From: a virus
Taxonomy: Duplodnaviria > Caudoviricetes
Virus record (IMG/VR): IMGVR_UViG_3300030330_004274
Coordinates: 1-64,000 of that record
Strand: one strand, 5' to 3'
DNA length: 64,000 nucleotides
Shown one piece after another: positions 21,544 through 40,729 of this stretch. The number at the start of each line of letters is the position of its first letter. The first letter of the stretch is position 1. Under the pieces are notes generated by a model. It ran no database searches. It was given only the letters and a program-made list of their open reading frames with translations, and had not been told where the DNA came from. A program made the position numbers and the translations under genes.

Positions 21544-21954
21544 ATGTTAATAAAAGAATTTATATCGCAAACAAATAAAAATCAAATGATTTCAACTATT
21601 TTGAAATATTACAAGGTTGGTAATGTCAAAATAAAAATGAAAAATATGAAAGACCATGCTCATTACGAGGTTGATGATGGTATATTACTTTTATCTACAA
21701 AATACAAAACTATCAAGAAATCTCAAATAAAGGAGTTTTTGATTACAATCATACACGAAACATATCATGCAATGGATGCTAAACGATATGGTTGGAAAAA
21801 GTTCAAAGAAATGTATGAGTTGGAAATGAATTATCAAATATCTCAAGGTAAAGATGAATACAAAGATAATAAGTATGAAATTGCAGCCGAAGATTTTGGT
21901 CAATCAAATTACAGAAAATGGTTACAAAAATTCAAAAAGGAAGGTTTAATTTAG
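21544..21954 (+). CDS. HExxH zinc metallopeptidase-like protein
   Basis: IIHETYH...YEIAAE. Confidence 0.6.
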   Translation: MLIKEFISQTNKNQMISTILKYYKVGNVKIKMKNMKDHAHYEVDDGILLLSTKYKTIKKSQIKEFLITIIHETYHAMDAKRYGWKKFKEMYELEMNYQISQGKDEYKDNKYEIAAEDFGQSNYRKWLQKFKKEGLI

Positions 21955-22030
21955 GGGGTGTAGCTCAGTTTGGGAGAGCACTGCACTTGCACTGCAGCGG
22001 TCGTAGGTTCGAGCCCTATCACCTCCACCA
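21954..22030 (+). tRNA. tRNA-Ala(UGC)
   Basis: Full cloverleaf, anticodon loop CTTGCAC, G3:U70 alanine identity pair, encoded CCA. Confidence 0.97.
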
Positions 22031-22035
22031 CATTA

Positions 22036-22109
22036 CGAGATGTAGTTCAGTTAGGTAGAACACTTGCTTTGGGAGCAAGGGGTCGTTGGTTCAAATCCAG
22101 CCATCTCGA
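22036..22109 (+). tRNA. tRNA-Pro(UGG)
   Basis: Cloverleaf with CGAGATG/CATCTCG acceptor stem, loop TTTGGGA, C1:G72 and A73; followed by CAT, so CCA is not encoded. Confidence 0.95.
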
Positions 22110-27244: not shown

Positions 27245-27447
27245 ATATAATAGAAATAATGAATAAAATAAAGTCAATCAAAGGTGATTATCAAAACAAT
27301 ATGATAACAGCAGATGAGATGTGTGAACACTTGGAAGACCTTATCTATGATGTACAAGGTAATGATGAGTATAGTGGGTTTGGGACTTCATTGGAAGATG
27401 ATGGGTTTTACGATAACATGCCTGACTTTACACAATTGAAGGTATGA
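27241..27447 (+). CDS. hypothetical protein
   Basis: AAGGAG RBS, ATGA overlap. Confidence 0.55.
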   Translation: MNIIEIMNKIKSIKGDYQNNMITADEMCEHLEDLIYDVQGNDEYSGFGTSLEDDGFYDNMPDFTQLKV

Positions 27448-27719
27448 TGATGGTATTCAATTCATTAACAAATTTTTTGAGCAATAAATACAATCTATGG
27501 GGATTAATCATTTTATCCAATTTACTGATAGGATACATTATAGGACAGTACCTGACTGTTGGCCAATTATGGTTAGTATTCATACTTGTATTTGTGAACA
27601 ACTTCTGTATGTTGACCTATGGAATGGCACAAGGTATGTTGATGTTAAGTATGACACAAAAAGCAATGAAGGAATGGTTGGATAAAATGGAAAGACAGAA
27701 CAAAAATGATACAAAGTAG
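27444..27719 (+). CDS. membrane protein
   Basis: Two hydrophobic segments; ATGA overlap. Confidence 0.5.
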   Translation: MMMVFNSLTNFLSNKYNLWGLIILSNLLIGYIIGQYLTVGQLWLVFILVFVNNFCMLTYGMAQGMLMLSMTQKAMKEWLDKMERQNKNDTK

Positions 27720-27880: not shown

Positions 27881-27910
27881 TTGACTTGAATGGGCAAAAA
27901 GCCTTATATT
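27881..27910 (+). promoter_or_regulatory. sigma70-type promoter TTGACT-N18-TATATT
   Basis: Matches the repeated promoter class; lies upstream of the non-coding region. Confidence 0.7.
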
Positions 27911-27952: not shown

Positions 27953-28008
27953 TGTTACAAATTGTTACATTTATTTTCTTGGATTGTATTGGCTTTTCTT
28001 CGTATATT
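27953..28008 (+). promoter_or_regulatory. direct-repeat promoter, copy 4
   Basis: Repeats at 27953/27963; TATATT at 28003. Confidence 0.7.
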
Positions 28009-28012
28009 GTAG

Positions 28013-28509
28013 TATCATCATAAGGATGGTAAAAGTTTTTTGATATAATTCCTCGCGGGAATGGGGTTCAGTATGAAAATGACTGAATAATGACTTTCCA
28101 AAAAGGTTATAAGGTGCGTGAGTAAGGTCTGTGGTGGACGGTACAAGGTACATAACTGTATGAGTATCACGAGGGTAACTCCTCTCGAAAGCGGCTGAAG
28201 TAAATAAAGAAAAATACATTGTATTTTTTGGTTACATGCATAAGGGTATACAATAATCCCTTTCACACCAGAAGAACCCCAAAATATTATTTGAGCGTGC
28301 TCCAGAAGAGTAAAAAGGAGTATCAGGAGCGTGCTCCAGAAAAAATGAGATGAACCTGCATACTTGGGTTGTAGTAATACTTCCTCAGTCCCTCCAGGTT
28401 CTCTCCTCACAATTAAATAGGTTATATTCTATATTGGTGTTATCCTTTCTACAATATAGAACAAAGGGCAACTCAATGGTTTAACTCCTTTTCCACAGTT
28501 GCCCTTTTT
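28013..28509 (+). ncRNA. candidate ~500-nt structured non-coding RNA
   Basis: Two upstream promoters, no + strand ORF in the track, raised GC, many hairpins and long-range stems, ends in a stem plus U-tract. Confidence 0.6.
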
Positions 28510-28563
28510 GTTACAAACTGTTACAATTTTCCTGTTGTAATATTGATAGAAAGTCCGTAAGTT
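28509..28563 (+). promoter_or_regulatory. direct-repeat promoter, copy 5
   Basis: Repeats at 28509/28519; TTGTAA-N17-TAAGTT. Confidence 0.7.
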
Positions 28564-28589
28564 ATAGTATAATTAAAAGGAGTTAATTT

Positions 28590-29756
28590 ATGAATCAACC
28601 GTTAAATGTAGTAAAAATTGAAAAATCAGGCAATAGGTTCAACGCCTGGGATACTAATGGTGTCAAGAGGACATCTGAAATAACAACTGTTACTCGTAGG
28701 AAAGCGTTCGAGGGAGATTATCTCTTGGGTGAGTTCGTTATGAAGAATGGTAAACACTACTGGAAAAAAGTGGATAATATTGAATCCGCTCCAGTTAATG
28801 ATACAATCTCTTCGGTAGAAGTCCCTTCTGACCACGAAGAGGTATTGAATTTTATACACAGTTCTTATTCCCTTAAACCAAGAATGCTGATGATGTCCGA
28901 GTTAAAATGGAAGTATTTGGTTAGGTCTGGTGTTAGAGGAAAGAACATTATGATGACAGGTCCTGCTGGTTGTGGTAAAACTATGGCAGCAAAATCGCTA
29001 GTAAATTCTTTAGATAGGCCTGATTATTATTTTAACTTGGGTGCAACTCAAGACCCAAGGTCAACTCTTATCGGTAATACCCACTTTGACAGTGCTAAAG
29101 GTACTTATTTCTCACAATCTTTATTTGTTGAGGCAATACAAACACCTAATGCGGTTATCCTCTTAGATGAGTTATCCAGAGCACATCCAGATGCATGGAA
29201 TATCTTGATGACTGTGTTGGATTATGGTCAAAGATACTTGAGGTTGGATGAATCTAATGGTAGTGATACTATTAAGGTTGCGGATGGTGTAACATTTGTA
29301 GCCACTGCGAACATCGGTAATGAGTATACTTCTACAAGAGTTATGGATAAAGCCCTGATGGACAGGTTCACTATTGTAGAGATGGATGTATTATCAGAGG
29401 ATGAGGAAAGTTCTCTATTGAATATGATGTTCCCTAATGTAGATAGTGTGGTGTTAGGTAATGTGGCTAAGATAGCAACTCTCACAAGAACAGAATCTAA
29501 CTCCGATACTGCGAGAATAACAAGTGGTATCAGTACAAGAACTACTGTTGAGCTGTGTGGGTTACTATATGATGGGTTCTCGTTAGAAGAGGCTGCTGAG
29601 GTTAGTATCTATCCACAGTATGATGCGACTGGTGGTGTTGACTCTGAAAGAACCTTTGTGAAACAGATTGTACAAAAGTTTGTTGATGATGGCTCAAGCG
29701 ATGACCTCTTCAATGAGGAAGAGATGGCGGAGGCCGAAGAGGATACTAACTACTAA
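28590..29756 (+). CDS. MoxR/CobS/CbbQ-type AAA+ ATPase
   Basis: Walker A GPAGCGKT, Walker B ILLDE, ATAN, DKALMDRF, ISTR. Confidence 0.85.
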   Translation: MNQPLNVVKIEKSGNRFNAWDTNGVKRTSEITTVTRRKAFEGDYLLGEFVMKNGKHYWKKVDNIESAPVNDTISSVEVPSDHEEVLNFIHSSYSLKPRMLMMSELKWKYLVRSGVRGKNIMMTGPAGCGKTMAAKSLVNSLDRPDYYFNLGATQDPRSTLIGNTHFDSAKGTYFSQSLFVEAIQTPNAVILLDELSRAHPDAWNILMTVLDYGQRYLRLDESNGSDTIKVADGVTFVATANIGNEYTSTRVMDKALMDRFTIVEMDVLSEDEESSLLNMMFPNVDSVVLGNVAKIATLTRTESNSDTARITSGISTRTTVELCGLLYDGFSLEEAAEVSIYPQYDATGGVDSERTFVKQIVQKFVDDGSSDDLFNEEEMAEAEEDTNY

Positions 29757-40694: not shown

Positions 40695-40729
40695 AGTATA
40701 TGATTGAAAAAGGAAAAAAAAGGAGTTAT

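Follow-up and report, generated by a model that had tools for sequence, protein, structure and literature searches.

Introduction

The small RNAs LhrC of Listeria, RsaE of Staphylococcus, and RoxS of Bacillus are C/U-rich and bind Shine-Dalgarno (SD) regions through multiple seeds. The late genes e, soc, 49, and I-TevI of phage T4 have inhibitory leader hairpins, with the ribosome-binding site (RBS) being hidden in early read-through transcripts. The manA RNA has been an orphan riboswitch candidate since 2010, and was proposed to be cis-regulatory from its position in the 5' untranslated region just upstream of a protein gene (Weinberg et al. 2010, PMC2864571). Like ROOL and GOLLD, manA RNAs are reported to form RNA-only multimers: in vitro, they assemble through kissing loops into pentamer-based homo-oligomers, decamers, and a 60-mer cage (cryogenic electron microscopy preprint 10.64898/2026.07.01.735769). 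Here, we analyzed positions 28013-28509 (plus strand) of a 64,000-nucleotide (nt) stretch of DNA from an uncultured marine phage, referred to as the window, which covers the initial 64 kb of a viral record of 168.8 kb (IMGVR_UViG_3300030330_004274; about 95% complete, GC content 31%) and in which an earlier note had proposed a novel structured RNA. Comparative sequence analysis indicates that this locus is a real, conserved, and modular phage noncoding RNA locus of about 495-500 nt, partly a divergent form of a known family (manA) and partly a new motif, for which we infer a function in translation control.

A conserved noncoding RNA locus

Inspection of the plus strand revealed the coding gap that the earlier note had described, with just two open reading frames (ORFs) of 44 amino acids (aa) lying between the ORFs at 27444-27719 (91 aa) and 28590-29756 (388 aa). 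The GC content also proved to be raised, at 0.38-0.40 within the region compared with 0.275-0.33 upstream and 0.31 genome-wide. The plus strand folds with a z-score of -2.81, and 0 of 100 shuffled sequences was as stable, in support of a structured RNA; the minus strand has a z-score of -2.06. At Rfam E<=10, the region matched no transfer-messenger RNA, RNase P, signal recognition particle, or intron family and no tRNA family; the earlier note had likewise recognized no transfer-messenger RNA, RNase P, signal recognition particle, or intron signatures.

The alternative that the locus is a protein gene, encoded on the minus strand (28410-28018, 130 aa) or as a small plus-strand peptide, with the helices arising by chance, is extremely improbable. 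The window does contain open frames, of 130 aa on the minus strand and of 44 aa on the plus strand; however, the frames are broken and shifted in the related contigs L002, L006, and L008 (related contigs and loci carry L numbers), in which the minus-strand frame 28018-28410 is reduced to pieces of 50-85 aa in differing frames. The conserved minus-strand coding that had been raised as a counter-argument to an RNA is thus absent from these relatives. The 130-aa ORF had no PHROG match, and the frames matched no protein family. Insertions and deletions are not multiples of three: the inserts in the P2 hairpin of the 3' motif, which range from 20 to 67 nt in twelve loci and up to 108 nt in metagenome contigs, differ by non-multiples of three. 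Compensatory base changes, by contrast, are distributed across many helices.

Two tandem promoters were found upstream, as previously suggested. The first is a sigma-70-like promoter, TTGACT-N18-TATATT (27881-27910, plus strand), with a scan score of 10/12 in a scan that is noisy (25 sites vs 12 expected). Related loci contain the 27881-27910 segment at 88-92% identity, as in L056, L036, and L030, where it lies just 5' of the cobS-like gene, and a promoter of this type stands directly ahead of the RNA leader in L003, L222, L247, and L298. The second promoter, of the TGTTACA class (27953-28015, plus strand), was recognized by its repeat geometry and consists of TGTTACA-N3-TGTTACA (27953-27969) and the -10 region TATATTGTAGTAT (28003-28015), from which transcription is predicted to start near 28015-28020. 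A hairpin previously listed at 28013-28031 was not upheld, as it overlaps this -10 region and is not conserved among relatives. The conserved 5' leader AGUUUUUUGAUAUAA (28034-28048, plus strand) is kept in L002, L006, and L008, and in 43 related contigs it stands ahead of whichever module comes first.

A manA-like domain at the 5' end

The 5' part of the RNA forms a manA-like domain (28048-28281, plus strand), defined by its match to the manA family (RF01745) and by covariation. It comprises a 5' hairpin (28048-28062), a closing helix between 28063-28069 and 28274-28280, and the core blocks UGACUGAAUAA (28080-28090) and GUGGUG (28131-28136). When the 921-nt segment 27700-28620 was searched with all families, 28060-28269 aligned significantly and over the full length (positions 1-192) to the RF01745 model with 34.7 bits (E 4.1e-7), which misses the gathering cut-off of 55.2 bits. 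The RF01745 E-value for the genome was 1.8e-8, and 14 control genomes gave no matches. Upstream of the same gene, the model scored 49.6, 38.4, and 33.9 bits in L008, L006, and L002, respectively, whereas canonical manA RNAs of viral contigs scored 161-197 bits. The distance between 34.7 and 161-197 bits points to a remote manA branch that the family threshold overlooks. The novelty claimed for the whole locus therefore holds for the 3' core, which has no Rfam match, and falls away for 28060-28269 with its sub-threshold manA match.

Comparison of 15 homologues (79% mean column identity) supported the structure of this domain, with RNAalifold predicting 41 pairs, 11 of which have compensatory changes. 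Such changes were seen in the previously listed pairings at 28048-28062, 28170-28187, and 28242-28262. The long-range helix 28063-69/28274-80 covaries in L006, L008, L234, L235, and L237: it reads GGGAUUC/GAAUCCC in L006, gains an extra G-C pair in L008, and is formed by GGGUUGUC with GGCAACCC in L235 and with GACAACCC in L237. The outer-helix positions of the manA model itself (GGGaG with CuCCC) are unpaired here, and the displaced GGGGUUC/GAACCCC covaries instead. The long-range helix appears to be the counterpart of the manA outer helix, moved outward by inserts of about 10-12 nt on each side.

The domain has in common with manA the blocks UGACUGAAUAA and UAAGGUG, a GUGGUG loop, a UAAC-loop hairpin, and a GGGUAUACAAUAAUCC hairpin, as well as a multi-hairpin junction, an outer closing helix of a G-rich and a C-rich strand, and a small 5' hairpin ahead of it. 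Both occur in marine phages. Unlike manA, however, the domain is not located directly ahead of an ORF: the next ORF starts 309 nt on, and three RNA modules, a terminator-like hairpin, and a promoter lie between. Also unlike manA, it is an optional part of its own RNA family. As it scores below the family threshold and lies away from the defining genomic position, the 5' domain is filed here as a manA variant and not as a member; it is a distant relative that appears to descend from manA and to work like it.

The canonical manA RNAs of viral contigs often adjoin tRNA genes on the same strand, at distances of 0, 8, 14, and 50 nt in L126, L111, L086, and L097. Across these contigs and L115, the separation from same-strand tRNA genes is 0-50 nt, or the manA copy comes shortly after a tRNA array. 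Glutamine riboswitch aptamers were observed near the canonical manA RNAs of L083, L102, and L112.

Element 2, a new 3' motif

When the regions 5' of the ATPase gene were aligned across related viral contigs, a motif emerged, termed Element 2 (28347-28410, plus strand), which is characterized by a covarying helix (P1) and invariant junctions. It consists of GAGA and the P1 5' strand (28347-28358), the invariant junction CAUACUU (28359-28365), the variable P2 hairpin (28366-28385), the invariant junction CAGUCCCUC (28386-28394), and the P1 3' strand (28395-28405), which is followed by CUCAC. In the general order of the family, the element ends with P1' and then CUCUCCUCA, and the P2 insert measures 20-108 nt. 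According to the alignment, a semi-conserved single-stranded tail, CUCACAAUUAAAUAGGUUAUA (28406-28426), follows. Element 2 had no match in Rfam. Together with the hairpins downstream of it, which resemble the anti-SD sequence of the ribosome, it constitutes the new part of the locus, for which the earlier note had listed helices only.

One of these helices, GAACCTG/CAGGTTC (28352/28395), turned out to be P1, and compensatory changes support it. Among 12 viral copies, five pairs are changed on both sides. Among 100 distinct viral and marine-metagenome copies, double changes occur in 6 of 11 pairs and 89% of cells are paired, compared with 43-58% when the pairing is slid, and the covariation score was reached by 0 of 500 shuffles. 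As the invariant 18 bases served to collect the metagenome copies, those copies necessarily agree in them; however, the same 18 bases of junction and tail are also identical in 12 of 12 copies that were found through the neighboring protein, independently of the motif. Our model of the element (R1) scored 83.8 bits at the window copy, which is the sole copy in the genome; neither 100 canonical manA loci nor the other 70 protein-selected CobS-type loci contained an Element 2 that it could detect.

The 3' end of Element 2 resembles the seed of the cyanobacterial small RNA Yfr1/Yfr10, ACUCCUCACAC (PMC2190773, PMC6778093), in that CUCCUCACA matches 9 consecutive bases of the 11 seed bases. Unlike in Yfr1, the CUCUC of CUCCUCACA is paired in P1, and there is no Rfam match. 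A cyanophage mimicking Yfr1 was considered and rejected, as the genome lacks psbA and its nearest cultured relatives, a Microcystis phage and Flavobacterium phages, are only about 32-53% identical in protein sequence; we regard the similarity as a resemblance only. In L204 (171-267, minus strand; identical in L207), Element 2 is present without pyrimidine-loop hairpins after it, and its tail runs straight into the RBS of an ORF starting MRIGIDCDGVLRDF, judged by eye to be a HAD-type nucleotidase.

Pyrimidine-loop hairpins that resemble the anti-SD sequence

The two terminal hairpins proposed earlier (28427-28509) both form in the minimum free energy (MFE) fold. The first, H3 (28427-28461, plus strand), displays the pyrimidine loop GUGUUAUCCUUUCUA (28437-28451). 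The second, H4 (28463-28509, plus strand), has a large loop containing UUAACUCCUUUU (28481-28492), is followed by a U-tract, and is the presumed terminator. Both loop segments, 28437-28451 and 28481-28492, are unpaired in the MFE fold. The 11-bp stem and U-tract expected at the 3' end are present in this fold at 28463-28509. As a Rho-independent terminator, H4 would combine the 11-bp stem and UUUUUGUU with a loop of about 21 nt; a terminator scan allowing loops of 3-8 nt made no call, because the loop exceeds the allowed length.

Comparison with related contigs revealed that the loops, rather than the stems, are retained. H3 loops of the UUCCUUUCU type recur on different stems, and H4 loops of the UUU(U)ACUCCUUU(C/U) type are kept on stems that are entirely different from contig to contig. 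At least one such motif lies within 170 nt downstream of Element 2 in 88 of 103 contigs; 113 of 131 motifs are inside MFE hairpin loops, and a T-rich tail follows 56 of these 113 hairpins. No further hairpins with such pyrimidine loops were found in this genome. The loops UCCUUUCU and ACUCCUUU appear to imitate the 3' tail of 16S rRNA (the anti-SD sequence): H3- and H4-type loops share up to nine bases with the usual bacterial tail. A small peptide encoded in H3/H4 was considered and rejected, as the reading frames differ between the window and L002.

The arrangement is reminiscent of LhrC-type RNAs, in that GUCCCUC, UCCUUUCU, and ACUCCUUU, displayed in an internal loop, a hairpin loop, and the terminator loop, are complementary to purine-rich RBSs. 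The LhrC family model (RF00616) scored 20.4 bits against a cut-off of 110 (E 2.4), so the likeness is one of design only. Unlike LhrC-type RNAs, the RNA described here is phage-encoded and fused to large accessory domains, and its targets are predicted.

A chain of exchangeable modules

A further hairpin lies between the manA-like domain and Element 2 (28293-28341, plus strand). Its arms are the direct repeats GAGCGUGCUC(CAGAA), and the two copies previously pointed out at 28293 and 28327 are exact over 15 nt and pair together in the MFE fold. The loop carries the SD-like sequence AAAAAGGAGU (28312-28321). Equivalent hairpins were found only in L002 and L317, with other stems and the loop UAAGGAGU; the hairpin is a clade-specific insert.

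Comparison of 107 distinct contigs revealed that the modules ahead of Element 2 are exchanged. The 5' position is occupied by the manA-like domain; by a 73-nt cloverleaf, present once or twice and sometimes after the manA-like domain; by a hairpin module; by a module with two T-loop-like hairpins; or by none at all. The distances from the leader to Element 2 fall into classes of about 97 nt (cloverleaf), 142 nt (module D and cloverleaf), 250 nt (manA), and 328 nt (manA and cloverleaf), which equal the sums of the module lengths, and the spacer from the manA-like domain to Element 2 is 6-13, 55-65, or about 84 nt. In L009, the promoter leads directly into Element 2. As the 5' domains vary while the 3' core is constant, the 500 nt are best described as a concatenation, a chain of independent modules behind one leader.

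These observations bear on the earlier suggestion of one large RNA in the manner of ROOL and GOLLD. The locus does resemble them as a phage-borne noncoding RNA of several hundred nt, and it folds better than its shuffles; a long-range contact between the SD-like loop (28312-28321) and the anti-SD-like loop (28481-28492) could also form. Neither ROOL nor GOLLD, however, matched the region at Rfam E<=10, the SD-like hairpin is found in 3 contigs only, and domains are gained, lost, duplicated, and swapped among close relatives. Unlike ROOL and GOLLD, the locus is a chain of exchangeable modules and not one conserved large fold, and a single global tertiary fold of about 500 nt is very unlikely.

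The cloverleaf, which is absent from the window, occurs in L003 (2584-2659), in L005 (2433-2509 and 2515-2591), and in about 50 related contigs. There, it is placed upstream of Element 2 and follows either the leader or the manA-like domain; L007 and L027 carry it in the absence of Element 2. It has tRNA geometry, with a 7-bp closing stem, a 5-bp arm with an AAGAGAG loop, a 6-bp arm with a YNCCAR loop, a 4-nt AGGG linker, and a 5-bp arm with a GGCAGUU loop. RNAalifold predicted 23 pairs in it, 14 with compensatory changes, and neither ARAGORN nor Rfam made a call. The other 5' module of L015 (2490-2650) contains two T-loop-like hairpins (GGTTCGACTCC and GGTTCGATTCC) and likewise received no tRNA call. 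A conserved hairpin module of about 45 nt, GGUAAAUGACGG(G/A)UAGUUACUCU..AAGAGCCUAUG.AUUUACC, lies between the leader and the cloverleaf in L004, L230, L259, L268, L277, L288, L306, L309, and L322.

The chain might also be read as an array of separate stable RNAs that are co-transcribed and then cut, like the T4 cluster of tRNAs and stable RNAs, in which every module would serve a function of its own and the likeness of the loops to the anti-SD sequence would be incidental to translation control; self-assembly into a particle might then be the role of the manA-like domain, and protein binding that of the core. We consider this unlikely. The same-strand tRNA genes next to canonical viral manA RNAs are in line with it, as are the homo-oligomers and 60-mer cage formed in vitro (preprint 10.64898/2026.07.01.735769), and the tRNA-shaped cloverleaf that many relatives carry between the manA-like domain and Element 2 could be a processing signal. 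The invariant junction bases of Element 2, which have no RNA partner in the phage, would fit as well. On the other hand, the window has no cloverleaf or tRNA between its modules, it shows one terminator-like hairpin only and no internal conserved promoter, and the loop motifs are conserved in their bases on freely varying stems and match the SD complement.

The downstream CobS-like gene and the TGTTACA/AAAGGAG set

Element 2 is linked to a gene for a CobS/MoxR-like AAA+ ATPase (28590-29756, plus strand; PF07728 AAA_5, E 4.9e-17; phrog_249), upstream of which it lies in 81 of the 90 contigs with enough sequence, at a median distance of 237 nt. In the window, this gene has a promoter of its own, identified by repeat geometry, with a TGTTACA repeat at 28509-28525 and a -10 region at 28560-28570 (plus strand). 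Its RBS, AAAAGGAGUUAA (28575-28586, plus strand), is a 12-nt complement of the H4 loop.

Seven TGTTACA-N3-TGTTACA repeats are present in the 168.8-kb genome (at 22115, 22698, 26173, 27953, 28509, 39978, and 40640), all on the plus strand and all with the same spacing, about 50 nt before a TATATT(A/G)TAGTAT box. Six of them drive protein genes with an AAAGGAG-type RBS, and one drives the RNA. ORFs led by AAAAGGAG stand behind TGTTACA promoters in five of seven cases in the genome. The 11-mer RBS AAAAGGAGTTA is common to the CobS-like gene (28575-28585) and, 12 kb away, a CobT/vWA-like gene (40718-40728; 716 aa, weak PF11775 match); elsewhere in the genome, only its complement occurs, in the H4 loop at 28482-28492. 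Among CobS-type loci, AAAGGAG is found in 8/10 with Element 2 and 18/60 without it, and TGTTACA promoters are found in 8/10 and 0/60, respectively.

Genomic setting

At gathering thresholds, Rfam identified two tRNAs (21954-22109) in the whole window and nothing else. The genome encodes T4-type baseplate wedge proteins, and psbA was not found in it. Its closest cultured relatives are a Microcystis phage and Flavobacterium phages, with a protein identity of only about 32-53%. Among 50,697 deposited phage genomes, blastn with Element 2 or the entire region as the query gave only chance matches within genes.

An SD-like 4-mer precedes 65% of the ORFs of at least 100 aa, compared with a background of 11%, suggesting that the host uses SD initiation. 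A Bacteroidota-type host with a masked anti-SD sequence, in which the RNA would titrate bS21, was considered and appears unlikely given these values.

A search with Pfam for a neighboring RNA-binding partner (Ro/TROVE, RtcB, or Hfq) found none, and the only Pfam matches near the locus were AAA_5, a weak CobT-type vWA domain, a CCA-adding enzyme, a PNKP phosphatase, and UvdE. The CCA-adding/poly(A) polymerase-family enzyme (PF01743; 37219-38328, minus strand) and the PNKP-type phosphatase domain (PF25109; 40038-40505, plus strand) are both located near the RNA locus and the two tRNA genes. Taken together, the two enzymes and the tRNA genes suggest a theme of RNA repair or tRNA maintenance.

A proposed role in translation control

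We propose that the locus is a noncoding modular unit of about 495 nt whose core pairs with AAAGGAG-type RBSs and thereby controls translation. Of the functions considered, this is the likeliest, although we hold the proposal to be evenly balanced between true and false. The leader, the divergent manA-type domain, the hairpin with the SD-like loop, and then the constant core would fold independently, head to tail, and the last hairpin with its U-tract would end the transcript. The pyrimidine loops of the core would base-pair with AAAGGAG-type RBSs, and this pairing would reduce the translation of the CobS-like gene or set its timing, as it would for the remaining strongly SD-led genes with promoters of the TGTTACA class. 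Action might be in trans, with the RNA working as a small RNA, or in cis, on read-through transcripts extending past H4. The manA-like domain would be an optional accessory, possibly a scaffold or a self-assembling part. The pyrimidine loops, the linkage to the CobS-like gene, and the associations with AAAGGAG and TGTTACA fit this model as circumstantial support.

Several observations weigh against it. The association of AAAGGAG and TGTTACA with Element 2 is the property of one clade and does not represent independent events. The H4 loop does not co-vary with the RBS of its own cobS-like gene; a co-evolving pair of loop and RBS was rejected, since across 81 contigs the longest complementarity averages 8.41 nt to the own site and 8.37 nt to other sites, and the 12-nt match seen in the window lies in the upper tail of the complementarity that SD and anti-SD sequences have in general. 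The loop of H4 is unusually large for an intrinsic terminator, and the start, end, processing, and expression of the RNA are predictions. No site complementary to the invariant CAUACUU or CAGUCCCUC was found in the phage genome, and the pairing model leaves both unexplained, which suggests a role in binding a protein, ligand, or host RNA or in a tertiary contact.

The position of Element 2 ahead of the CobS-like gene also raises a rather doubtful alternative, a cis-acting leader of that gene in which Element 2, the manA-like domain, or both would be an aptamer sensing a ligand or protein and setting termination or read-through at H4. Element 2 is aptamer-like in its long covarying P1, invariant internal-loop bases, and variable distal hairpin, and it is followed by a terminator-like hairpin. 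In a variant of this explanation, the late-gene pattern of T4 would apply: the anti-SD loops would silence the RBS on read-through transcripts, and translation would proceed only from the gene's own promoter, which indeed lies between the H4 loop and the complementary RBS, as in T4. As with the T4 late leaders, the RBS-complementary sequence is upstream of this promoter, and only read-through transcripts would carry the inhibitor. Unlike in T4, however, the complementary bases are in a stable hairpin loop about 90 nt upstream and not in the stem that contains the RBS, and their pairing with it lacks covariation support. Moreover, only about half of the contigs have a TGTTACA promoter in the interval from H4 to the gene, no alternative anti-terminator pairing was found, another gene follows Element 2 in L204, and 9 of the 90 contigs have no downstream CobS-like gene. 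Interchangeable 5' domains are also ill-suited to a single sensor.

Implications for manA-type RNAs and marine phages

Beyond the translation-control model itself, we tentatively consider a broader possibility, namely a new, cassette-built class of phage RNAs in which a constant effector core (Element 2 and the hairpins with 16S-like anti-SD loops) is fused to interchangeable 5' domains, among them a manA-type self-assembling RNA, a tRNA-shaped cloverleaf, and a T-loop module. Such an RNA would be co-inherited as a whole with the CobS/CobT-like ATPase pair and would tune the translation of a small, strongly SD-led phage regulon. If this were true, natural manA-type domains would be parts of stable multi-domain RNAs and not riboswitches. 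The presence of such a domain as an optional 5' part of a longer noncoding RNA with a terminator-like hairpin at its end, together with the canonical copies that adjoin tRNA genes, argues against mRNA leaders and for stable RNA domains as the nature of manA-type RNAs. This alters the choice of experiments that are worthwhile. With more than 100 marine representatives, covariation, and base-perfect junctions, the 3' core would offer a testable case of RNA-based translation control in phages, and the RNA may help in approaching the CobS/CobT-like gene pair that marine phages carry for reasons as yet unexplained.

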